A stretch of DNA of 64,000 nucleotides from an uncultured cyanobacterium (lineage in GTDB: Bacteria; Cyanobacteriota; Cyanobacteriia; CAKZMO01): contig CAVRCJ010000014.1 in NCBI GenBank assembly GCA_963719515.1, positions 32,001 to 96,000 on the forward strand. Reading direction: 5' to 3'. The translations under genes were made by a program, and so were the position numbers. Below, piece by piece: positions 6,404-42,631 of this stretch. How positions within the stretch are numbered: the stretch's first letter is position 1; every line of letters starts with the position of its first letter. Below the pieces are notes generated by a model that did no database searches, was not told the origin of the DNA, and saw only the letters and a program-made list of their open reading frames with translations.

Positions 6404-8963
6404 ATGCGAGCAGTACTTATGGCGGGTGGTTCAGGGACTAGGCTCCGTCCACTGACCTGCGATCTCCCCAAACCGATGGTGCCGATCTTAAACCGACCTA
6501 TTTCTGAGCACATCATCAATTTGCTGAAGCGGCACGGGATCACCGAAGTGATCGCAACGCTGTTCTATCTGCCCGACGTTATGCGGGACTACTTTCAAGA
6601 CGGCAGCGACTTTGGCGTTCAGCTCACCTATGCGGTGGAAGAAGACCAGCCCCTGGGAACGGCAGGCTGCGTCAAGAACGTCAGCGAGCTGCTTGACGAG
6701 ACCTTTTTGGTCATCAGCGGCGATAGCATTACGGACTTTGACCTAACAGAGGCCGTGGCCTTTCACAAAGCTCGAGGGTCGAAAGCAACGCTGGTGCTGG
6801 CCCGGGTTCCTAATCCGGTCGAGTTCGGCGTGGTGATTACCGATGAGAATCAGCGCATCCAAAGGTTTTTAGAGAAGCCCTCAACAAGCGAAATCTTCTC
6901 TGACACGGTCAACACGGGCACCTACATTCTGGAGCCGGAAGTTCTGGCCTATCTGCCAGAAGATCAAGAGTGTGACTTCTCCAAAGATTTGTTCCCCAAG
7001 CTGCTGGCGGAAGACGAGCCGATGTACGGCTACGTGGCTGACGGCTACTGGTGCGATGTCGGCCACCTAGAAGCATACCGAGAAGCCCAGTACGACGGCC
7101 TGCAGCGCAAGGTGAAGCTCGATTTGGAGTACTACGAGGAAAAGTCGCCCGGAATTTGGATCGGCAAAAACTCTGCCATTGATCCCGAGGCCCAGATCGA
7201 TTCACCCGTGATGATCGGCGATAACGTTCGCATTGGACCTCGGGCAAAGATTGAAGCCGGTAGCGTGATTGGAGATAACGTCACGATCGGGGCCGACGCC
7301 GACCTGAAGCGGCCCATTGTCTGGAATGGCTCCATCATCGGCGATGAGGCGCAGCTGCGAGCCTGCGTCACCGGACGGGGAACCCGCATCGATAGGCGGG
7401 CTCAAATTTTAGAAGGCGCAATTGTGGGGTCGCTCTCCACCGTGGGCGAGGAAGCCCACATCACACCCGAGGTCAGAATTTGGCCGAGCAAGAAAATCGA
7501 GCCGGGTGCAACGCTGAACATGAACTTAATCTGGGGACAAGTGGCTCGACGAAATCTATTTGGTCAACGTGGGGTATCTGGCTTAGCTAACGTAGACATT
7601 ACCCCAGAATTTGCCGTCCGCCTCGGGACGGCCTACGGCTCAACTCTCAAAGCGGGCGCAGACGTGACGGTCTCCCGAGACCAGCGCAGCATCTCTCGCA
7701 TGGTGTCGCGATCGCTAATTTCGGGGCTGATGTCGGTGGGAGTTAACGTCCGCAACCTAGAAGCGACAGCGATCCCCATTGCCCGGGTGGTTGCTTCCTC
7801 TATGGACGTCGACGGCGGTATTCACGTGCGCATCCACCCCGATCGCCACGACCACATCTTGATCGAGTTCTTTGACAGCAACGGCATCGATCTGTCCAAG
7901 AGCCGCGAGAAGAAGATTGAGGGCTCTTACTTCAAAGAAGATTTCCGCCGGGTGCCCATCCAAGAAATTGGCAACATGGTTTACCCCAGTGAGGTCATCG
8001 ACGCCTACAGCACCGCTTTTGAAAAGCACCTCGACGTTGAGGCCGTCCGCAACAGCAAGACGAAAGTCATCATCGACTACGCCTACGCCGTCTCTAATGC
8101 GGTACTGCCTCGGCTCTTAAACAAGTTTGGCTGCGACGCTGTGGTCCTCAACGCCAGCTTAAGCCAAATTATGCCCTCCATGGAGGAGCGGGAGCAACTG
8201 CTCAATCAGCTGGGTCAGGTGATCGAAGCGCTGAAGGCCAATTTGGGGGTACAGGTTGCCGCGAACGGGGAACAGCTCGTCCTGGTGGACGAGACCGGTA
8301 GCCCCGATTCGCGGCGAGATGCTGACGGCGCTGATTACCCATATGTTCTTGACGGTCCAGCCCCGAGGCACGGTGGTGGTGCCCGTCAATACATCGAGCG
8401 CCGTAGAGCAAATTGCCCGCCGCCACGACGCCACGGTGATTCGCACCAAGGTCAACCCGACAGCTTTAATGCAGGCCTGCCACGAAAACTCCAACGTGGT
8501 GCTGGGGGGCAGCGCCGACATCGGCTTCATCTTCCCCGAGCTGCACCCCGGCTTCGACGCCATGTACTGCATCGCTAAGCTAATTGAGCTGCTGACGCTA
8601 CAGGATCGCTCCCTCGGCCAGATTCGCTCTGAGCTACCCCGCGTGGCCTACCGTAGCGCTAGCGTTCGCTGCCCTTGGATGGTGAAAGGGGCGTTGATGC
8701 GCCATCTGGTGGAGAACAATCCCAGCGAGATGATTGATTTGACCGATGGCGTGAAGATCTTTAAGTCTGAAGAAGACCGAGAGAGCTGGATTTTGGTGCT
8801 GCCGGATGCTGGGGAGCCGCTGGTTCACCTCTACGCCAACAGCGTTGAGCGCAAGTGGGTTGATGATACGCTGCGCAACTACCGCACCCGCGTGCAGGAG
8901 TTCGTTGAGGCTGAAGAGGGCATGGTCGACAGCGCTTCTGTGGCGGAGCCGGTGTATTCGTAG
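6404..8963 (+). pseudogene. Bifunctional mannose-1-phosphate guanylyltransferase/phosphomannomutase with one frameshift (real or assembly error)
   Basis: [18 protein letters not shown] nucleotidyltransferase domain, left-handed beta-helix repeats and a PGM/PMM-like region (LFGQRGVSG). The conserved reading continues in another frame ([10 protein letters not shown]...) after the C-run at 8302-8305 and ends at 8963. Confidence 0.85.
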
Positions 8964-28113: not shown

Positions 28114-28362
28114 ATGGGAAGAGCCGGAAAAGCGCTACGACAGGTGTTAGAGACTTACAGCATCAGCCAAAACCAGCTGGCTGTCACTATGGACGTTGGG
28201 CGATCGAGCATCAACCGCTGGGTTAACGAAAGCCGCGACCCTGCCGCCGAAGCCGTCGCCGATATCGTTCACGCGCTAGAGAAAATCGATCGCTCAGCCG
28301 CCGAAGATTTTCTTACTCTCTACCTCGACCGTAATACAGACGGAGAATCTCTAGATGGCTAG
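28114..28362 (+). CDS. XRE-family HTH regulator (copy 1)
   Basis: ALRQVLETYSISQNQLAVTMDVGRSSINRWVNESRDP. Confidence 0.9.
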   Translation: MGRAGKALRQVLETYSISQNQLAVTMDVGRSSINRWVNESRDPAAEAVADIVHALEKIDRSAAEDFLTLYLDRNTDGESLDG

Positions 28363-28491
28363 GATTTTCGTTAGAACTACAGCGATCGCCATAATTCTGA
28401 TGCATAAACACACCTGCGCAAAACGCTTGCGGGGTATTTGGGCATCGGCTGATTTATAGTCGCAAACGGATCGCGCCACAAAAGCGAATTC

Positions 28492-28740
28492 TCAAGCAAG
28501 AGCTGTTTCAATATCATCACTCGAAGCCACAGGCTGCGCCCTGAGCAGCTTATGGTGCCCAGGGCGCAGCCCCAATGATTCGTAAGTTCGCCCGCTCCTA
28601 TCGCTAAACTCGATCTCAAACGCCGAGCCCCCTGCCAAAGCTTCAACGACTGTACCCACCTGCCCCCGCCGCAGATTGTACTGTGGGAGTTCAGTCACTA
28701 GGGCAACAACATCAAGCAGTTTAATCGCGTCTTGTGACAT
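28492..28740 (-). CDS. DUF4926-like protein (putative antitoxin/immunity)
   Basis: IKLLDVVALVTELPQYNLRRGQVGTVVE..AFEIEFSD..GRTY. Confidence 0.8.
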   Translation of the reverse strand: MSQDAIKLLDVVALVTELPQYNLRRGQVGTVVEALAGGSAFEIEFSDRSGRTYESLGLRPGHHKLLRAQPVASSDDIETALA

Positions 28741-28758
28741 TCTTCCTCTCCTCAAAAG

Positions 28759-29103
28759 TTATAGGGGATAGCAAGTTGTTAGTCTCGGAACAGTAGACCC
28801 ATGCTCAATGATCCAACCGCTGCGGACGGGCACACTTCTATTCTGCCATTGGAGTACAAAGTCTACAGTGCATCGCTGGCCAAAAGAATCACAGCGCCCA
28901 GCTTGAGCCTCATGCGTCCTGATCATTTGGAAGAGAATTCGGCGCAGCTCCTCAGCATCGGCAGCCGTCAGGCCCAACATTGAGGCAAACAACCTCGCTT
29001 TGTGCTTGTCCTCACGATGCTCCAGATTTAGACGATAGTCGCGGAGCTTGCGAATATCGATCGCTGCATTCTCAACGTAAGGCAGTAGCGTTGTCGAGTC
29101 CAC
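28759..29103 (-). CDS. DUF6883-like protein (putative toxin)
   Basis: AAIDIRKLRDYRLNLEH...KHKARLF..LG...GWII....PRLTTCY. Confidence 0.8.
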   Translation of the reverse strand: MDSTTLLPYVENAAIDIRKLRDYRLNLEHREDKHKARLFASMLGLTAADAEELRRILFQMIRTHEAQAGRCDSFGQRCTVDFVLQWQNRSVPVRSGWIIEHGSTVPRLTTCYPL

Positions 29104-29157
29104 GGGCTAAAGCACATTCGGCATATCCGCCAAAGAATGCCCAGTTTCGCGATCGCC

Positions 29158-29202
29158 CTACCGACTTCCCCAAGGCCGCTGCAGCACAGCAATTACCTCA
29201 CC
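29158..29202 (-). pseudogene. 3' remnant of a second copy of the small gene at 27749-27994
   Basis: 38/41 nt identical to 27751-27791; encodes GEVIAVLQRPWGSR*. Confidence 0.8.
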
Positions 29203-29215
29203 TATATTGAACGGC

Positions 29216-29464
29216 ATGGGAAAAGCCGGAAAAGCCTTAAAGAAGGTTCTCGAAACCTATAGCATCAGCCAAAACCGCCTAGCCGTTACCATGGGCATTA
29301 GCCGCATCACCGTCAACCAGTGGTTCAACGAAACCCGAGATCCCCTCGCTGAATCTATTCCCGACATCGTCCCTGCCCTCGAAGCCTTAGACGCCGAAGC
29401 GGCCAAAGACTTCATCGCTTTCTACCTGAACCGCAACGCAGACGGAGACCCCTTAGATAGCTAG
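29216..29464 (+). CDS. XRE-family HTH regulator (copy 2)
   Basis: MGKAGKALKKVLETYSISQNRLAVTMGISRITVNQWFNETRDP; paralog of 28114-28362. Confidence 0.9.
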   Translation: MGKAGKALKKVLETYSISQNRLAVTMGISRITVNQWFNETRDPLAESIPDIVPALEALDAEAAKDFIAFYLNRNADGDPLDS

Positions 29465-29551
29465 ATTTCCATCAGCGATCGCGGCAATGCTGAGACGCAA
29501 ATACACCTGTAGGGAACTCTTACAGAGTGCTAGAGCGCCAGCTGACAAAAC

Positions 29552-29890
29552 ATGGTTCAACCCTGCGGGTTTACGTTTCCTTCAGCAAAAGCCGAATACC
29601 TCCTAACCTACGCCTCTGAGCCAGGTCGGGGTGGAGATAAACAGAACTTCTGGCGACGAGTCCTCGGGTTTACCTCCGCTTCCAATATTCGAAAGGCCAT
29701 CCTAGCACTAGTCTCTGCCGATATATTGGTATTGATGAGGAGAGGTGCTTATGGCGATCGCTACGAGGCTTCAATCCAAATCACAGGCCCAAGCGGAAAC
29801 ACTCGCCAGGTGCGTACAGTTTGGATAGTCTTAAACGGAGAGAACACGGCTCGATTTGTAACAGCATTTCCGGCTCGCAGGCAGAAGTAA
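29552..29890 (+). CDS. DUF6883-like protein (second)
   Basis: AKAEYLL...GGDKQNFWRRVLGF...YGDRYE...GPSG...VRTVWIV....ARFVTAFP. Confidence 0.75.
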   Translation: MVQPCGFTFPSAKAEYLLTYASEPGRGGDKQNFWRRVLGFTSASNIRKAILALVSADILVLMRRGAYGDRYEASIQITGPSGNTRQVRTVWIVLNGENTARFVTAFPARRQK

Positions 29891-29892
29891 CC

Positions 29893-30351
29893 ATGACCTT
29901 CAAGCTATTTGATACAGTCCAGCTCCTAGAAGACATTTCCTTAGACAACGACGCCACCGCCCCCGCCGGTACTCTAGGTTCCGTGGTAGACGTCCTCAAC
30001 CAGGGCGAAGCGTACCTAGTAGAATGCCTCGGTGGCTGGGTAAAATCCAATGCCGACGGAGATCTTGCTTCATCCGAACAGGAAGATCCCGAAGCCTTCA
30101 GGGAGACACTTGGCGTTGAAACACTCTATCCCAATCAGATCCAGCTTATGACGCCTGCTGAGGAGAGCGTAGGTGTCCGAGCACAATTGTTGCTGCTGAT
30201 TGAAGACATGCCCGATGTGCTCCTAAAAGAGGTCAAAGACTTTGCTGAGTTTATTCAGCAAAAGTCGACGCCGCTCAGGCCACATCAACAACCGCTCACT
30301 GATGACTCAACGTCGCTTACAGAATCAAAAAAGCGATCGCCCTCCCTCTAA
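29893..30351 (+). CDS. DUF4926-like domain fused to a DUF2281-like helical domain
   Basis: FKLFDTVQLLEDI...PAGTLGSVVDV...AYLVE; C-terminal IEDMPDVLLKEVKDFAEFIQQK. Confidence 0.75.
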   Translation: MTFKLFDTVQLLEDISLDNDATAPAGTLGSVVDVLNQGEAYLVECLGGWVKSNADGDLASSEQEDPEAFRETLGVETLYPNQIQLMTPAEESVGVRAQLLLLIEDMPDVLLKEVKDFAEFIQQKSTPLRPHQQPLTDDSTSLTESKKRSPSL

Positions 30352-33862: not shown

Positions 33863-36061
33863 ATGGCGCATCGCTTGCCAGCGCTCTTCAATGCCCGCCT
33901 GTCGCGTCGAATCGTTTTGTGGGTGTTTGCCAGTATCGTCTTGATAGAAATCATCGTTCTTATTCCCTCTGTGTTTCGGCGGGAAAGAGAGCTGTTGAAG
34001 TATCTGACACTGATATCAGCGGCAAAGGCATCGGGTGTTTTGGAGGCCACGTCGGCGAAAGATGAAGACGCGATTTTAAGGGTTCTCAGCACCGCCCAAG
34101 ATGACGTTGCTTTAGGCGGGGCGCTGTACCGCGTCGATGGTGAGCTGGTGGGTGAGTTTGGGGAGCCTCCCCGCCTCACGTTTGAGCAAATCAGTAGGGG
34201 ACGCAAAGAGTACCTGAACCGACGTCTAGGACGGTATGACGCCGTTTGGCAGATGCCGCCGCTAGATGATAGGTATTTGGTGGTGATTCGCCACAACGCC
34301 GACATTCGCAGCGAGTTCTTAGCATTCATTGCCCGAGTGATGGGCCTGGTGGTGATCATTTCGATTTTCGTCACCATTGCCACCATGATCGTGCTCAACC
34401 GGCTGCTGATTCACCCGATTGTGAGGCTGCGGCGCGACCTGCGGCGGGTGGGGCAAGCGCTCAGCCAAGATCAAAGTGCCGTTGTGGTACCGCCGCTGCC
34501 TTCGATTGATCCTCAGCGGAAAGACGAGCTAGGGGAGGTGATGGCGGCGTTTGTGCAGATGGTGCACCAAATTGCAGATGCGATCGCCAACCGACAGCGC
34601 ATGGAAGTAGAGCTACGCATCTCTGAAGAGAAGTTTTCCAAGGCCTTTTCCTCCAGCCCAGACGCTGTTACTATCAGCACGCTTGCGGAGGGGCGGCTGC
34701 TAGAGGTCAACGAGACTTTTCTCGAAGTTGTTGGGTTGGCCCATGGGGATGTCATCAACCGCACCATCGGGGAACTCGGATTTTGGCCTGACCTCACGGC
34801 GCGAAGCCCCTTGATCGAAACGCTGCAGCGGGACGGACGACTGCGCAACCAAGAATATCAGTTTCGCACGGCGCGCGGGCAGCTAAGGACGGCGCTCTAC
34901 TCCGCAGAGCAAATCATGCTGAATGATGAGCTCTGTATTCTATCTGTCATCAACGACATCACGGAGCGTAAGCAGGCGGAAGAAGCCCTACGGGAGAGCG
35001 AAAATCGCTTTCGGGCGCTGATTGCCCAGGCGGTAGATGCCCTATTTGTCATTAACCGCGAAGGTCGCCTCGTGGACGTCAACCAGCAGGCCTGCTCAAA
35101 CCTGGGGTATGAGCGTGAGGCGCTCTTGCGCCTGTCGGTTCCGGATATTGAGGTGAATCTCTCGGCGGCAGACGTCAGTCAGCTGTGGCAGCAGCTGAAG
35201 CCCGGGCAGCCCATCACCATAGACGGGGTTCACTGTCGGCGAGATGGCACGACCTTTCCCGTGGAGGTGCGGCTGGGTCTGATTCAGTTTGGCGGTCGCC
35301 AGCTTATTTTGGCCCTGGCCCGAGATATTACCGAGCGCCGGCAGGCGGAGGCGGCAATCGCCCGGCTCGCAGAAATTGGGGAGCTGTCCTCAATGATTGT
35401 GCATGAAGTGCGCAACCCGCTGACAACAGTAATGATGGGCCTTAGCTCGTTTAAGCGGCTAGATCTGCCTGAGCGATCGCAGCTGCGGCTGGCGCTGGCG
35501 CTGGAAGAATCAGAGCGGCTACAGCGGCTGCTCAACGAAATTCTCATGTACGCCAAAGAGCCGCAGCTGGAAATGGTGCCTATTGAGCTAGTCTCGCTGT
35601 GCTACGAGATTCGCGACACCCTTCTACCCCAACCTATGGCGCAAGACCGACAGATTGAGCTGAAGACGCTATCCTATGGGTCAGTTGAGGTTGCGGGCGA
35701 TCGCGACAAGCTCAAGCAGGTGTTTATCAACCTGGTGACCAACGCCTGTGAGGCCAGTCCGGCGGGGGCAACGGTCACCTGGCAGGTGACCGTCACCGAT
35801 GGTCAGGCGATGATCCAGATTCACAACGGCGGCGCTCCGATTCCACCCGACGTCTTGCCCAAGCTCACCCAGCCTTTCTTCACCACAAAATCCTCGGGCA
35901 ACGGGCTAGGTCTTGCCATTACTAAACGAATTGTGGAGGCCCACGGTGGGGAGCTAGCGATCGAGTCGCTGGTTGACGAGGGGACGACGGTGACCGTGAC
36001 GCTGAGCCTCAAACCGCTGAATCTGGAGACGCTGGCTTTTGGCACATCGGAGCTAGATTAG
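33863..36061 (+). CDS. Membrane sensor histidine kinase (2 TM, HAMP, 2 PAS, HisKA, HATPase)
   Basis: RKDELGE HAMP, PAS/PAC DITERK, IVHEVRNPL H-box, QVFINLVTNA, FFTTK..GNGLGL. Confidence 0.93.
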   Translation: MAHRLPALFNARLSRRIVLWVFASIVLIEIIVLIPSVFRRERELLKYLTLISAAKASGVLEATSAKDEDAILRVLSTAQDDVALGGALYRVDGELVGEFGEPPRLTFEQISRGRKEYLNRRLGRYDAVWQMPPLDDRYLVVIRHNADIRSEFLAFIARVMGLVVIISIFVTIATMIVLNRLLIHPIVRLRRDLRRVGQALSQDQSAVVVPPLPSIDPQRKDELGEVMAAFVQMVHQIADAIANRQRMEVELRISEEKFSKAFSSSPDAVTISTLAEGRLLEVNETFLEVVGLAHGDVINRTIGELGFWPDLTARSPLIETLQRDGRLRNQEYQFRTARGQLRTALYSAEQIMLNDELCILSVINDITERKQAEEALRESENRFRALIAQAVDALFVINREGRLVDVNQQACSNLGYEREALLRLSVPDIEVNLSAADVSQLWQQLKPGQPITIDGVHCRRDGTTFPVEVRLGLIQFGGRQLILALARDITERRQAEAAIARLAEIGELSSMIVHEVRNPLTTVMMGLSSFKRLDLPERSQLRLALALEESERLQRLLNEILMYAKEPQLEMVPIELVSLCYEIRDTLLPQPMAQDRQIELKTLSYGSVEVAGDRDKLKQVFINLVTNACEASPAGATVTWQVTVTDGQAMIQIHNGGAPIPPDVLPKLTQPFFTTKSSGNGLGLAITKRIVEAHGGELAIESLVDEGTTVTVTLSLKPLNLETLAFGTSELD

Positions 36062-37634
36062 GCACAAGGGCAGGGTGCAGCGGCAGGTTGGCCAGTCCGT
36101 ACCCTACCTGACTACCCAGCCAAGCCGAGGATACAGGCGCGTCTTGACCCTCAGAGACTTGATTGATGCAGGCCCCGGGGGTGAGAGCCTCGGAGGTGGC
36201 CACAATGGACGGTGACAGCAGCGTCGCTTCTGAAAAGCAGCGCCGCGCCCACAAGGCTACGACAGGCATCGACGCCGTTCCGCCAGAGCAGATGACCTGC
36301 TGGATGGCTTGCGGAGAGACTCCAGCTTGTTGAATGAGAGACTCGACCTGCTGATTGATTGTCTGAATGTAGGGCAGCAAAATTTGGTGACCCAGCTCAT
36401 CTTGAGTCACCTGTCCGCGATGCTGGGCCAGGGTGTAGGTCGCCCGAGGCTGGGTTTGTAGCTCATGCTTGAGAAACTGGGCGATCGCCAGCAGCCGCCG
36501 CCCAGTGTTGGAGCTGCACAGGCGCAGCTGGAGCTGCCGTCGTCTAGCGCTGTCAGGCTGACTGAGCTGGGGCCGCTCTAACGTATCGAGCTGTAGAGCA
36601 CTGAGCAACTGCTCAACTTCTGCGAGGGGCGAGGCCTGAAGCTGCGGATAGAGCAGGTGGTAGAGGATATCTTGATCGATAGCCAGGCCGCCATAGGCTA
36701 TAGAGTGGGTGGCTATGGGACGCTGACCTTTGGCTAGCGTAGCCAAATCGACTAGCGCTAGCTCGGTTGTGCTGGCCCCCGCACTGACAACAAACGCCAG
36801 CCCCTCGGCAGCTAAGTGCAGGGTGGAGTCGGCAGGGCCAGAGTCAGTAGAGCCAAGATCGGTAGAACCAGCCGCAGGCTGCAGGCAGGCGAGGACAGTA
36901 GCAGTAGTTTCTTCTACGAAATAAATCTTTTTAGGCTCTGGGACTAAGCCTGCGTCCAAAATAGCGTTTTGCAAATTGGTTTGATACTGGCTCGACCAAT
37001 CGCCCGGAAAACTTACCCCAATGCCCGCCAGCTCCTGCATCGCCGCCTCAAATTGGCCTTGCTCAAGACCAAGACCGCTGCAGCGCCAGGCTGAGGGTTG
37101 ACCTGAGCCTGATTTTAAAGTGCCTAGGATCTGGGCCAGTGGCTTGTAGGCGGGTTCCATCAATGGGGAATGCTCCCGCGTACCCGCCAGCCCGCGCCGC
37201 AGTGGAAGAGCCAGGGCAGGTTTGAGCTGAGAGAGAATGGCGGCCTCTGCTGATGGAGTAGGAATGGGGTCAGTGGACTGATGCCGATTGGGGTCAATCG
37301 AAAGATCGACGGGCCACCGGAACCAGCGCTGGGGGACTTCGGCCTGCCACCAGAAGAGCGGTGCCCTCCGCTGGGTCTGCCGATTCAAAAGAACGGCAGA
37401 GAGTCCTACGGTGCCGATATCTAGCCCCAAAAACCACGTGCCAGAGGGAAGCGCGGCGGGCGGCGGGACAGCTTCAGCGGACTGCGCCGCTTGTGCGTCA
37501 TGGGCCTCTGTCCCTAATCCGGCCAGTGCCGGAAACAGGGGGCGTCCTGGGGGTAGCTTGATGCTGTGCTTCTGTGGGGGCGCATCTTTCGCATCCCGAA
37601 TAGTCCAGCTAATTGGACCTACTTTTTTTTTTCG
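36009..37634 (-). CDS. Hsp70/actin-like ATPase-fold domain; probably the -1-frame C-terminal part of the upstream gene
   Basis: WFLGLDIGT, VSAGASTTEL, YGGLAIDQ, CSGGTAS. The frame is open from 37634 with no ATG/GTG/TTG before the conserved W. Confidence 0.75.
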   Translation of the reverse strand, partial: RKKKVGPISWTIRDAKDAPPQKHSIKLPPGRPLFPALAGLGTEAHDAQAAQSAEAVPPPAALPSGTWFLGLDIGTVGLSAVLLNRQTQRRAPLFWWQAEVPQRWFRWPVDLSIDPNRHQSTDPIPTPSAEAAILSQLKPALALPLRRGLAGTREHSPLMEPAYKPLAQILGTLKSGSGQPSAWRCSGLGLEQGQFEAAMQELAGIGVSFPGDWSSQYQTNLQNAILDAGLVPEPKKIYFVEETTATVLACLQPAAGSTDLGSTDSGPADSTLHLAAEGLAFVVSAGASTTELALVDLATLAKGQRPIATHSIAYGGLAIDQDILYHLLYPQLQASPLAEVEQLLSALQLDTLERPQLSQPDSARRRQLQLRLCSSNTGRRLLAIAQFLKHELQTQPRATYTLAQHRGQVTQDELGHQILLPYIQTINQQVESLIQQAGVSPQAIQQVICSGGTASMPVVALWARRCFSEATLLSPSIVATSEALTPGACINQVSEGQDAPVSSAWLGSQVGYGLANLPLHPALVPNLAPMCQKPASPDSAV

Positions 37635-40198
37635 TCATCTTCTATCTCAGAGAATGTCCAGGGAGTTGTCTCAATATTGTCCGACGCCGGCGAGTTGACG
37701 GGAACCTCCGCTTCTCCAGCAGGCTTGAGCAAGTCGGCCAAGGTTTGCTCTGCGATCGCAGAACGATCGGACGGGCTATCTTCGCTCCCCTCAAGGGCCG
37801 CAAACAGCGCGGCAATTTCGTCGATTGTCGATTCGTCCTCAGCAAAGGGGTCGACTTCCACCTCTGGTGGGGCCGGTTCGCTAGAGGCCAACTCGCCAAA
37901 GATAGGGCCGTCGGCGGTAGATTCTTCCTCCCGACCCTCTTCGTCATCGTCCATTTCGGGCAGGGGCTGAAAGATCTCGGCGGGTTGCGAGAAGGGGCCG
38001 AGGGGAGGGGCCGATTCGTTGGTCGGCTCGCCTGCAGGCTCTTCGGGGTCTGTCTCTGGCAGCGGCGAGGTTAGGCCTGCAGGCGAGCTATCGACGGCGA
38101 AGAAGGCGTCATCCGGCGATAGAAACCCCGATACTGGGGCCCCATCTTCAGGGGTAATATCGGGCTCTACCGTATCGGGATCCATATCGCGCTCGACGTC
38201 GGGTTCAACAGGGGAGCGATCGCTCCCCTCAATGCGAGACAGGTCAGCTGTGAGCTGGTCGATATCTATATCGAAGTTGGCGAAGGGCTTAGCGCTATCG
38301 CCACTCGTGGGCAATAGATCTTCCCCTAAGGACGCCATGGTGAACGAGTTGCTGGTACCTGAGGTGTCCTCCATTCCCATCTGAATTAGAAGGTTGGGGT
38401 CGATTAGATCTGATAAGCGAGTGATGGTGTCTATGTCGGTAGTGCCTGTGATATCGGTACTTTCGTCATCGACGCTTTCCCCACCGGCATCCGCAACGTC
38501 AACGTCTGCGCCATCGGCACCGATATCGCGATCGATATCATGGGTGGTGTCTAGATCAGTAGCGCCTATATCGGCGGTGTTGATGTCAGGGGTAGTTTCA
38601 CCAGCTGCGTCTAGATTTGCGGCGCTCAGTTCAAAAGGCGTCTGGGGGTCAGGCTCCCGACGCTGTGTCTCGCTCCCCCCTTCAGAGGGCCCCTCTGTAG
38701 CCGCTCGAAACTCTGCATAAAATGACGCAATCTCATCACTTGGGTCGACTGAAAACTCGGGCGGACTGTCACCGTCCGCTGCTGGAGGACCGTCCGCTGC
38801 TGAGGGACTGTCTGCTGGGGTATTGTCTGCTGCTGGGGGACTGCCTGAAGATGCGGGCTCTTCCGCCGCTTCTTGCAGGTCAGCTTGCTCTGACGTCAGC
38901 GGCTCAAACTCCTCACCCCCAAAGACTGCGGCTTCATTGACCGTCACGCCATCATCCCCTAGCTCGAACAGGGCGATCGCCTCGTCGGAATCTCCTTCAG
39001 GGCTCTCTGTCAAGGCCGTCAGGTCAACCCCCTCTAAATCAAGACTGAGGTCATTGCCAATAGCGTCAATGTCGGCCTCTAAATCTTGGAGGAGTTGATC
39101 GATCAAGTCGTCGGTATCAAGCTGAGCGGGCGCGGCCTGAGGGATGGCCCCCTGACCGCGCCCCTCTAGCGGCATTTCTACCGGCATCTCCAGCGGCATT
39201 TCTGAGGGAGTTTGCGGCAGGTTTTGGCGTAAAATCTGGTCGATCTGATCCGCAGACAAGTCCTCTGCCGCAGAGACGCTGTCTGGGGCGACGGCGTCGC
39301 CGATGATACTGCGATCAGGTTCCGGAGGCTGGTCGTCAGACAGGTCGCCTGGGCCTACCAAGCTGGCTTGCCCATCTTTCGTGGACAATAGCCGCTCTCC
39401 CAACGGGGCTGTGCTGCCGAGCTGAGTATTGGCCCCCTCGGACAGCGAGTGGTTGAGGTAATTTGAAGCCTCGCGCCCGAGCTGGGTTGCCAAACGGTTC
39501 ACTAGAGCTGCAAACAGCGTCTCTCCCTGCTGTCCCAAGCTGTGCATTTTCTCCAGGCCTTGGCCCAGCGAGTCTCCATAGCTGTCGATGGTGCTCTGCA
39601 AAGAGTCGAATACCACCCGCATGGTGGAGTCCATCTTTAGCATAAGCTCGTTTGATGTCGCCTGTAGAGCCCGCAGCTGCTCTACCTGCTGCGCTCCGCT
39701 GAGCTGTGGCACCCCTTCGCCATCAGGATCGCCCGAGAGCTGGGGCTGCATCAGAGCGATCGCCTGCACCACTTGGGTGGTCATCTGGTCCTGCAGACGC
39801 GCCATGAGAGACTGCATGAAGTCTTGGAGCATTTGCTGCTGCATCGCCTGCTGCTGAGAGGTCTGCAGCTGCTGCTGCTGCTGCTGTAGCTGGCGCACGG
39901 TGCTAGCCAGCTGCTTTCGCTCATCGTGGAGCTGCGTGATCTCCTCGCGCAGGGGCTGAATCATATTGGCTCGCAGGTAGCCCATTTCCTGCACCACCGC
40001 CTGCAGAACCTGCTGGGCGCTGGCCTCTTGCGACTCGACCTGTGACGCCTTCCCACTGCGCTGCAGCTCCACCAGATAGCTGCGAGTTTCGGCGATCGCC
40101 GCCTGCTGTCGGGCCTGCGCCTCAGGGGTTGAAGAATCTCTGAGCGCTAAGTCAAGCTGGTCGATCAGCGCTTTCAGCTGGGCTCGATTAGAAGTCAC
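37619..40198 (-). CDS. Coiled-coil N-terminal, long acidic/disordered protein ending EKKK* at an A10G run
   Basis: GTG at 40198; Gln-rich coiled coil followed by a D/E/P-rich region. Confidence 0.82.
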   Translation of the reverse strand: MTSNRAQLKALIDQLDLALRDSSTPEAQARQQAAIAETRSYLVELQRSGKASQVESQEASAQQVLQAVVQEMGYLRANMIQPLREEITQLHDERKQLASTVRQLQQQQQQLQTSQQQAMQQQMLQDFMQSLMARLQDQMTTQVVQAIALMQPQLSGDPDGEGVPQLSGAQQVEQLRALQATSNELMLKMDSTMRVVFDSLQSTIDSYGDSLGQGLEKMHSLGQQGETLFAALVNRLATQLGREASNYLNHSLSEGANTQLGSTAPLGERLLSTKDGQASLVGPGDLSDDQPPEPDRSIIGDAVAPDSVSAAEDLSADQIDQILRQNLPQTPSEMPLEMPVEMPLEGRGQGAIPQAAPAQLDTDDLIDQLLQDLEADIDAIGNDLSLDLEGVDLTALTESPEGDSDEAIALFELGDDGVTVNEAAVFGGEEFEPLTSEQADLQEAAEEPASSGSPPAADNTPADSPSAADGPPAADGDSPPEFSVDPSDEIASFYAEFRAATEGPSEGGSETQRREPDPQTPFELSAANLDAAGETTPDINTADIGATDLDTTHDIDRDIGADGADVDVADAGGESVDDESTDITGTTDIDTITRLSDLIDPNLLIQMGMEDTSGTSNSFTMASLGEDLLPTSGDSAKPFANFDIDIDQLTADLSRIEGSDRSPVEPDVERDMDPDTVEPDITPEDGAPVSGFLSPDDAFFAVDSSPAGLTSPLPETDPEEPAGEPTNESAPPLGPFSQPAEIFQPLPEMDDDEEGREEESTADGPIFGELASSEPAPPEVEVDPFAEDESTIDEIAALFAALEGSEDSPSDRSAIAEQTLADLLKPAGEAEVPVNSPASDNIETTPWTFSEIEDDEKKK

Positions 40199-41218: not shown

Positions 41219-42415
41219 TCAGTGACTCCCAGCTACCGCTGAGACATTTCCTGAGAGATTAAGGGCTTGATGTCCCACAGCCCTATTCAATAGGTTGATA
41301 GCCGCGTTGTGGTCGCGGCAGATCGTTAAGCCGCATGACGGGCAACTATGGACCCGATCGGCCAGCGTCTTTGGTACCCGCTCACCACAACCCGAGCAAT
41401 CAATGCTGGTTCCGCGTGGGTTCTCAGCGATGGTCATCTTTCCAGCTTTCGCGGCTTTGAAAGAGCCTATCTCCAAGAATGTACCCCATGCGGCATCAGC
41501 GATTGACTTTGCCAGTCTGGTTCGAGCAAGTCCTTTGATGTTGAGCTTTTCATGAGCGACAACATCGTACTTTGAAAACAGCCAATCCCACACCTTAGAA
41601 AAGAAATCACGGCGCTGACGCGATATCTTTAGGTGTAGTTTGGCTATACGATTCACCTGCTTACGCCAGCGGTTAGAGCCCTTCTTCTGTCTCGATAGCT
41701 GCCGCTGCAGCTTGGATAGCTGCCGCTCTGAGCGTCGAAAGAACTGAGGGATAGGAACGCTCTCACCGTCACTGGTAACCAAGAAATCCTTCAGCCCAAC
41801 GTCAACACCGACAGACTTAGCCCTATCGACATCCGGAGTAAGCATCGGAACGGCATTGTTTTCCAGTAACAGGCTCACATACCAACCATCTGCTTTGCGA
41901 GTCACCTTGGCCGTTTTGACAGTAAACCCATCAGGTATCGGGCGATGAAGGATTAGCTTCACCTGGCCAATCTTAGGCAGGGTAATACGACTTCCATCGA
42001 TGCAGTCAGGTTTCATCTGCGGGAACGTGAACGTCCTGTAGCGCCCCGCGCCTTTGAACCGAGGCTTGCCGCTACGCTTACCGTTTTTATCACCTTTGAT
42101 GAAACGCTCGAACGTCTGCTTTACCTGCTTCGTCACCTCCTGAAGCGCTTGTGAGTGCAAATCTTTGTACCAGGGTCGCTCTCGCTTGAGAGGTACTAGG
42201 CTAGCCTTCTGGCTGTAGTAATTAGGATTATCTTTGAGTGGCGCAAGGCTACAGGTGAGTGGGCAGGCGTTGACCGAACAGCGGTTCATCTCCCACCAGT
42301 CGAAGCGCTCAGCCAGCAACCAGTTGTACTGTGCCCGAAGCATGTCTAGCCATCGGGTCATGGTAACCGTTTGCTCAGCCGCTGGACGCAACTTGTACTG
42401 ATAAGTGACTTTCAT
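41219..42415 (-). CDS. tnpB: TnpB RNA-guided endonuclease
   Basis: MKVTYQYKLRP; RuvC residues in GVDVGL, AHEKL and RDHNAA; zinc finger CSGC/CPSC. Confidence 0.95.
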   Translation of the reverse strand: MKVTYQYKLRPAAEQTVTMTRWLDMLRAQYNWLLAERFDWWEMNRCSVNACPLTCSLAPLKDNPNYYSQKASLVPLKRERPWYKDLHSQALQEVTKQVKQTFERFIKGDKNGKRSGKPRFKGAGRYRTFTFPQMKPDCIDGSRITLPKIGQVKLILHRPIPDGFTVKTAKVTRKADGWYVSLLLENNAVPMLTPDVDRAKSVGVDVGLKDFLVTSDGESVPIPQFFRRSERQLSKLQRQLSRQKKGSNRWRKQVNRIAKLHLKISRQRRDFFSKVWDWLFSKYDVVAHEKLNIKGLARTRLAKSIADAAWGTFLEIGSFKAAKAGKMTIAENPRGTSIDCSGCGERVPKTLADRVHSCPSCGLTICRDHNAAINLLNRAVGHQALNLSGNVSAVAGSH

Positions 42416-42448
42416 GCAATAATGATAGCATATTGACATCAGAACGAC

Positions 42449-42631
42449 ATGCAGCAAATAACTATTAGAGCCGCTGACAGAGAAAAGCAGCATCTTGACA
42501 AGTATTGTGAGATGACCGAAAGAACTATCAACGATGTCCTTAGGGAGTACATCCGAAGTTTGGCCGTCTCCGGGGCATTGAGCCCCATCGACGACCGCGA
42601 CTCTCATCCCGACGCTCACCCTGACGGGTAG
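42449..42631 (+). CDS. Ribbon-helix-helix (CopG-like) protein inside the IS
   Basis: MQQITIRAADREKQHLDKYCEMTERTINDVLREYIRSL (beta-alpha-alpha pattern). Confidence 0.72.
   Translation: MQQITIRAADREKQHLDKYCEMTERTINDVLREYIRSLAVSGALSPIDDRDSHPDAHPDG

Follow-up and report, generated by a model that had tools for sequence, protein, structure and literature searches.

Programmed slippage of RNA polymerase on adenine runs has been described in several bacterial genes. The dnaX gene of Thermus thermophilus undergoes transcriptional slippage on nine adenines (A9), which yields the tau and gamma proteins (PMC5009743), and dnaX genes composed of two open reading frames (ORFs) with a run of ten (A10) were reported by Antonov et al. 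2013 (PMC3711429). In Citrobacter rodentium, the split gene tssM1 involves slippage on A11 and both variants are needed, and tssM3 of Yersinia pseudotuberculosis has a poly-A slippage site that is in frame; from these two genes a structural protein is made in two lengths, at about 20%, with the site found in two species only (PMC4256274). The spa13 gene of Shigella, where slippage by RNA polymerase gives two isoforms, is a further example among the A9-A11 precedents (PMC5009743, PMC4256274). Here, we describe a candidate site of this type in a window of 64,000 nucleotides (the whole stretch of DNA analysed) from an uncultured cyanobacterium, contig CAVRCJ010000014.1. It lies at the junction between ORF1, which encodes a coiled coil with an acidic linker, and ORF2, which is in the −1 frame and encodes an Hsp70-like ATPase domain.

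Comparison of sequences gives good support to the reading that this one locus encodes a short product of 859 amino acids (aa) and a long product of 1,396 aa, by recoding at an A10 run. The original prediction, made from the sequence alone, had suggested products of about 860 and 1,400 aa, and conservation across related loci backs both of them. It is very probable, on comparative grounds, that the junction is a conserved recoding site of some kind, and programmed transcriptional slippage is probably the main route to the long form.

The A10 junction and its conservation

On the minus strand, ORF1 ends GAC GAA AAA AAA AAG TAG, with ten adenines at 37632-37623 and a G at 37622. The −1 frame is closed by a TGA at 37637-37635, directly ahead of the run; the 541 codons that come next are open as far as a stop at 36011-36009. 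The earliest ATG, GTG or TTG in this frame is the TTG at 37430, a Leu codon within the conserved WFLGLDIGT strand, and the near-start codons ahead of it are limited to ATT, ATC and CTG. The original prediction had read these features in the same way: an ORF1 ending in A10 then G at 37632-37622, a TGA closing the −1 frame just ahead of it, and a lack of canonical start codons before WFLGLDIGT. In this genome the predicted product is 859 aa with A10, 1,396 aa with A11 (or A8), and 862 aa with A9. The position of the ORF1 start codon is conserved, with a VTS or MTS N-terminus in the coiled-coil alignment, and the length of the linker is highly variable among homologues.

Long runs of this type are rare in the genome, with two A/T10 and nine A/T9 runs in 5.28 Mb, and the junction run is the sole A10 on the sense strand across 1,958 long ORFs. 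Lysine codons are 62% AAG, and the tRNA-Lys complement consists of the UUU anticodon only. The rarity of A10 and the preference for AAG indicate that the run is conserved beyond both chance and the needs of the protein.

A homopolymer assembly error, in which the true sequence is A11 and the ORF is continuous, had been raised as an alternative. Fused orthologues are common, and this assembly does carry a private one-base insertion elsewhere: an indel predicted near 8302 proved to be real, an extra C at 8301-8304 that splits a gene at 6404-8963 (+). This gene, which from its sequence we take to be nucleotidyltransferase/phosphomannomutase-like, has an intact frame (855-888 aa) in 5/5 relatives, and the extra C is probably an assembly error. 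At the junction itself, the A10 run, the −1 split and the TAG are identical in 4/4 congeners, which rules out such an error here, and the −1 arrangement is common to 80 distinct loci. A continuous ORF hidden by a miscounted run is thus scarcely credible.

To place the junction in a wider context, homologous loci were surveyed. Among the 251 genomes examined from the class, 135 have the downstream ATPase domain, each in one copy, and several whole families have no match. A profile search of 1.84 billion representative sequences identified 369 proteins at E ≤ 1e-30; the named matches are cyanobacterial and nearly all are annotated as 'hypothetical protein'. The locus set comprised 283 loci, or 236 distinct loci after collapsing, and one of its sources was the best 80 of 259 matches by score. 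It includes 106 of the 135 domain-positive genomes; open-frame length places 24 of the remaining 29 in a single frame. Loci were classed as run-bearing if they have A9-11 at the junction, with four A8 loci not counted and one locus (L047) undetermined.

A run of this length is present at the junction in 125 of the 236 distinct loci (18 with A9, 97 with A10, 10 with A11), and 979 kb of the same loci contain 11 other A/T runs of nine or more. The original suggestion that orthologous loci be aligned is answered by a split and an A-run that recur at the same position, both in the 4/4 congeners and in the 80 distinct −1 loci. The phase is not fixed, as the ATPase frame is at −1 in 80 of the run-bearing loci, with 28 others in frame and 17 at +1; for A10 loci alone, the −1/0/+1 counts are 58/26/13. 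Whole clades have the +1 phase in common (L012/L013/L015/L037; L017/L019; L029/L131/L137) or the in-frame phase (L021/L109/L127; L050/L054/L107), and genus g40 holds all three. The tree requires the phase to have changed no fewer than 22 times across the 123 rows that bear a run, and the presence of the run to have changed 17 times. The tree was built with FastTree from 230 domains after six partial-domain loci were left out, and six of the phase calls are based on a short stretch of upstream sequence.

The short-product stop is retained as well. It lies within 15 nucleotides (nt) of the run in 74/80 (−1), 22/28 (in-frame) and 16/17 (+1) loci, and a third-frame stop lies this close in 33/80, 12/28 and 9/17, respectively. 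In the in-frame loci, whose default reading frame does not contain the short-product stop, that stop is nearer than the third-frame stop in 25 of 28. For ORF2, the ratio of nonsynonymous to synonymous substitution rates (dN/dS) is 0.06-0.40 in 18 of 20 pairs (two were saturated) across all phases, pointing to purifying selection; in this locus it is 0.12-0.22 against three congeners and saturated against the fourth. Five congeners retain the KKKVGPISW-type peptide that begins where the run ends, and their codons for it differ at third positions. Purifying selection on ORF2, along with the retained nearby stop, suggests that the coding parts of both products are under constraint.

Proposed transcriptional slippage and competing explanations

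In the proposed mechanism, RNA polymerase would realign on the A10 tract to produce a mixture of mRNAs with 9, 10, 11 or more adenines. Standard translation of this mixture would yield two proteins, a short one ending immediately past the run and a long one that reads on through the ATPase domain. An mRNA pool that spans all three frames would leave the genomic phase free to drift, so that changes between −1, 0 and +1 would alter the isoform ratio only, with the length of the run held near ten. The retention of the run in all three phases, its length of about ten, and the retention of the short-product stop fit slippage by RNA polymerase. The action of the polymerase, the presence and ratio of the two proteins, and a role at the septum or in joining cells are what we infer from these patterns.

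The original prediction had offered two mechanisms, of which slippage is favoured by the +1 and in-frame loci and a −1 ribosomal shift of the Escherichia coli dnaX type is disfavoured. As in E. coli dnaX, there is an in-frame A_AAA_AAG heptamer, here with a stop immediately behind it, in a genome whose single tRNA-Lys has the UUU anticodon. A short hairpin begins about 3 nt past the run, −1 is the commonest phase (80/125), and a G is next after the run in 48/80 of the −1 loci. The differences from E. coli dnaX are that the heptamer ends the run in just 39/80 of the −1 loci and that there is no conserved Shine-Dalgarno (SD)-like element or 3′ stem-loop. SD-like motifs upstream of the run are at background (20/80 −1 loci compared with 21%), with none upstream in the window; the mean z-score for 3′ folding is about −0.2, with z < −2 in 9/125 loci; and the hairpin seen here is not conserved in the family. 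Furthermore, a ribosomal shift gives no account of the 17 +1 and 28 in-frame loci that keep the run (45/125 are not −1), or of the retention of ten adenines where seven bases suffice. Ribosomal frameshifting may add to slippage here, but it is unlikely to be the principal source of the long form, even in this lineage.

Changes in phase could also take place in the DNA itself, with slipped-strand mispairing toggling the ATPase domain in sub-populations and the assembly representing the majority allele. A10 tracts are mutable in replication, a point also discussed in PMC3711429. Phase changes are frequent on the tree, and close relatives in g40 differ by one adenine (A11 in L160, A10 in L161). 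Phase does not track the length of the run, however: A10 dominates each phase, and the phase is set mostly by indels beside the run. In addition, whole clades are in an 'off' phase, and yet their ORF2 is under purifying selection. Phase variation of this type appears improbable as an explanation.

Loci without the run provide further evidence. These comprise 78 in one frame, 32 that are split and 1 undetermined; five of those in one frame were assigned by length threshold alone (L120, which is broken at an A7 run, and the short or partial L081, L117, L208 and L209). An own in-frame start codon is present in 31 of the 32 split run-less loci, and in some of them (L202/L203, L304-L306) the Lys codons have changed to AAG, with an ATG that either overlaps the stop or comes after it. 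For loci with 60 or fewer codons ahead of the domain, an ATG or GTG is found in 30/30 run-less compared with 28/57 run-bearing loci. Loss of the run is accompanied by a replacement, either a single frame or an own start, and this counts in favour of slippage. Two Nostocaceae records are split at other sites: P0139/P0142 (Nostoc sp. DSM 114160) into 457+885 aa, and L120 (Richelia intracellularis HH01) at its A7 run after about 470 aa. These splits may be assembly errors, decay or new sites.

It could be proposed from such loci that there are simply two separate genes, with ORF2 translated from a non-canonical codon or by re-initiation and the run kept for another reason, for example to encode a KKK tail or to supply the U-tract for an antisense terminator. 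The 32 split run-less loci are truly two-gene, a possible start follows the run in 79 of 97 split run-bearing loci, and the short gene occurs alone in eight genomes. On the + strand at 37603-37632, a 6-bp hairpin followed by T10 resembles an intrinsic terminator for antisense transcription. This hairpin is not conserved in the family, and promoter and terminator scans were at chance level. Where AAG is the favoured Lys codon, as in this genome, AAA codons are not necessary for a KKK tail, and genes that are in frame still contain the run. This locus is one of 18 among the 97 split run-bearing loci that have no ATG, GTG or TTG before the domain, and in the five congeners the −1 frame keeps encoding the peptide next to the run despite third-position changes. 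Together these observations make separate genes a very improbable reading.

Several points weigh against slippage. In the 79 split run-bearing loci that have an in-frame ATG, GTG or TTG between the run and the domain, separate initiation is possible, and genus g141 has the run plus an ATG 11-12 codons ahead of the domain. About half of the loci (110/236) do without the run, which indicates that two isoforms are not universally required. Differences in phase or run length confined to one genome (for example, A11 in L160 and L152) could be assembly errors, of which this assembly has one private case. The loci were picked by best score, two families are over-sampled and related genomes are not independent, such that the proportions are not population estimates, and the tree came with long-branch warnings. 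Metatranscriptome contigs of relatives cannot tell strain differences from slippage. A search with L282:2200-6500 found 24 matching sequencing runs, all of them assembled contigs, with a word share of 0.11-0.21. Four contig sets were aligned, with relatives mostly 90-99% alike and 20 indel rows not displayed. One contig, from X9, has a run longer by a single base (A11, which is in frame), and several contigs of X7 are piled at the run (summed depth 232, compared with 37-48 in neighbouring bins); neither observation speaks for or against slippage.

A SepJ-related coiled coil and an Hsp70-like domain

The pairing of a coiled coil with an Hsp70/actin fold, as originally predicted, is borne out by AlphaFold2 (AF2), Foldseek and hhalign. 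The features of the locus are collected in Table 1.

Table 1. Features of the probably recoded locus, with positions in the window and the basis for each.
Feature	Position	Strand	Basis or detail
ORF1, short product	37619..40198	-	GTG start at 40198, 859 aa, C-terminus DDEKKK, then stop
N-terminal all-helical coiled-coil domain (residues ~1-257)	39428..40198	-	AF2 model, hhalign homology to SepJ-type coiled coil, paralogue architecture
Acidic Pro-rich low-complexity linker	37633..39427	-	Composition: 25% D+E, 3% K+R, 10% P
A10 run, proposed RNA-polymerase slippage site	37623..37632	-	Sequence; A9-11 kept at junction among homologous loci
In-frame A_AAA_AAG heptamer ending the run	37622..37628	-	Possible −1 ribosomal shift site in this lineage
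TAG ending short product, 1 nt after run	37619..37621	-	Same-frame stop kept near run in homologous loci
ORF2, −1 frame, 541 codons, no canonical start ahead of domain	36009..37634	-	Sequence and dN/dS
Hsp70/actin-like nucleotide-binding domain without substrate-binding domain	36012..37445	-	Domain alignment, AF2, Foldseek, motifs, ESM Atlas

The AF2 model of the C-terminal domain has a predicted local distance difference test score (pLDDT) of 79.7. Its best Foldseek matches are the nucleotide-binding domains of Ssz1 and DnaK (E 1.5e-13, template modelling (TM) scores 0.5-0.6), and the matches in ESM Atlas are Hsp70 clusters (0.94-0.95); the domain is below the cut-offs of Pfam and NCBIfam. 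Three motifs, which we take to be phosphate-1, connect-1 and adenosine, are conserved across 230 sequences (phosphate-1 D 98% and G 97%, connect-1 E 85%, adenosine G 100%) and are kept in all locus types. The Asp of the presumed phosphate-2 motif is present in 11% of sequences, with mostly Asn or Ser instead. Thus, the domain is like Hsp70 proteins (DnaK, Ssz1) in its nucleotide-binding fold and these three motifs, and differs from them in the lack of a DxGGGT phosphate-2 motif and of a substrate-binding domain, the model covering the nucleotide-binding domain only. As judged from these residues the domain is likely to bind ATP, and whether it would hydrolyse it is uncertain. This genus and a few other lineages (L002-L005, L031, L165, L166) are without a segment of about 150 aa that is found after the domain in most members.

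Residues 1-257 were modelled by AF2 as four long helices (pLDDT 78). A Foldseek search of this model against the PDB gave no match at E ≤ 0.001, and Pfam, NCBIfam and ESM Atlas offered no name for the N-terminal domain. Its profile also finds a paralogue of 595-770 aa, composed of a coiled coil, a linker and an EamA/DMT permease. Alignment of the coiled coil with ten of these coiled coil and permease proteins by hhalign gave a probability of 99.8% (E 2.5e-28, 185 columns), and the motif YQxSLSQxLxxMHSLxQQGE is common to both. The same architecture is that of the septal protein SepJ (PMC12096826), which is listed as 751 aa in a table of PMC12421839. The paralogue is called SepJ-type here from architecture and size, an assignment that did not include comparison with Alr2338 itself.

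Our protein resembles SepJ (FraG, Alr2338) in having a homologous coiled coil followed by a variable low-complexity linker. It differs from SepJ in its extra N-terminal helical pair, its acidic linker, the Hsp70-like end of the long form and the absence of a permease, no EamA/DMT permease family being found in ORF1 or ORF2. Matches of SepJ type are present in 128/135 genomes with the ATPase domain compared with 21/116 without it, counts that include some plain permeases and related genomes that are not independent. Homology of the coiled coil to the SepJ type, together with this similar distribution among genomes, makes a septal role a reasonable inference from sequence. A complex prediction for the coiled coil and a SepJ-type coiled coil gave a score of 0.16, which provides no answer and was set aside.

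This genome has its own SepJ-type gene (L314:2916-4643 on G000:C17, 575 aa), in which the second coiled-coil segment is shorter than in nine homologues. In some lineages (L297; G022, G037, G068, G050, G167) the gene described here is within about 3-8 kb of the SepJ-type gene. The eight genomes with the N-terminal gene alone in the fetched stretch encode 351-445 aa in seven cases and 985 aa in one, with no match to the domain genome-wide. Several of these genomes (L299-L302, L307-L309) also have a shortened SepJ-type protein of 385-437 aa (G149, G176, G167, G084, G069, G051), hinting at joint reduction of the short gene and the SepJ-type protein.

Another septal candidate for comparison is SepI (Alr3364), described in PMC12096826 as having a coiled coil and a SepJ-like linker without a permease, and listed as 521 aa in a table of PMC12421839. 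Compared by description only, this architecture resembles that of the short product. Its length differs from the approximately 1,200-1,430 aa of the Nostocaceae members of this family, and no named SepI protein was among 60 short homologues. Identity with SepI is not established.

With regard to neighbouring genes, a divergent Crp-family regulator (96/142 loci) and a DUF2232 gene (79/142) are the usual upstream neighbours, and in this window a thioesterase is found in their place. A 466 aa ORF at 41219-42619 (-) resembles a TnpB of the IS200/IS605 family. A cluster of short genes at 28114-30351, with duplicated helix-turn-helix (HTH) and DUF-like ORFs, resembles toxin-antitoxin or defence modules.

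Significance and relation to known slippage systems

A tentative picture, possible on the sequence evidence though less likely than not, is of an unrecognised septal scaffold in filamentous cyanobacteria. The soluble paralogue of the SepJ coiled coil would be made in a short form and a long, ATPase-bearing form through an ancient slippage site, with the phase tuning their ratio by lineage. If both forms were to assemble together, possibly along with SepJ, a few Hsp70-like domains would be placed at cell-cell junctions. The homology to the coiled coil of SepJ gives an uncharacterised family a candidate role at the filament septum that can be tested.

To our knowledge, verified productive transcriptional slippage in ordinary chromosomal genes is restricted to few cases, mostly in few species. 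If the scaffold picture is true, this would be the most widely conserved non-mobile bacterial slippage site that we could find, and would link recoding to bacterial multicellularity. The three frame relations, along with every exit from them (fusion, fission with a new start, and domain loss), offer a natural experiment in the upkeep and replacement of recoding sites. The site also bears on the question of bidirectional slippage by cyanobacterial RNA polymerase on A10. In practical terms, most genomes that carry the run are expected to have this gene annotated by gene callers as split or shortened.

No published account of this gene or site was found in literature searches, with subscription papers and the GeneTack database outside their scope. 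There is no mention of it in the main text and one supplement of PMC3711429, or in the first 300,000 characters of PMC5009743. The readable supplements of PMC12669612 likewise do not mention it; the main supplementary PDF of that paper, which was outside scope, may list SepI homologues.

In comparison with the systems described, as far as the available parts of those papers go, the mechanism is a known one, and the breadth of the site, its three phases and the outcomes of fusion, fission and loss exceed the known cases. The dnaX genes of Thermus and of the A10 two-ORF type are alike in having an A9-A10 run, a short and a long isoform, and in-frame and split versions across taxa. The protein here is unrelated to DnaX, and the site differs in having three phases, even within genera, and in its repeated resolution to pure fusion, to fission in which a start is gained, or to a gene that lacks the C-terminal domain. 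The tssM genes are similar in that a poly-A run is split in one species and in frame in another. There, the site is known from two species; here, a run at the same junction of an unrelated protein is found in 125 loci across many cyanobacterial families.

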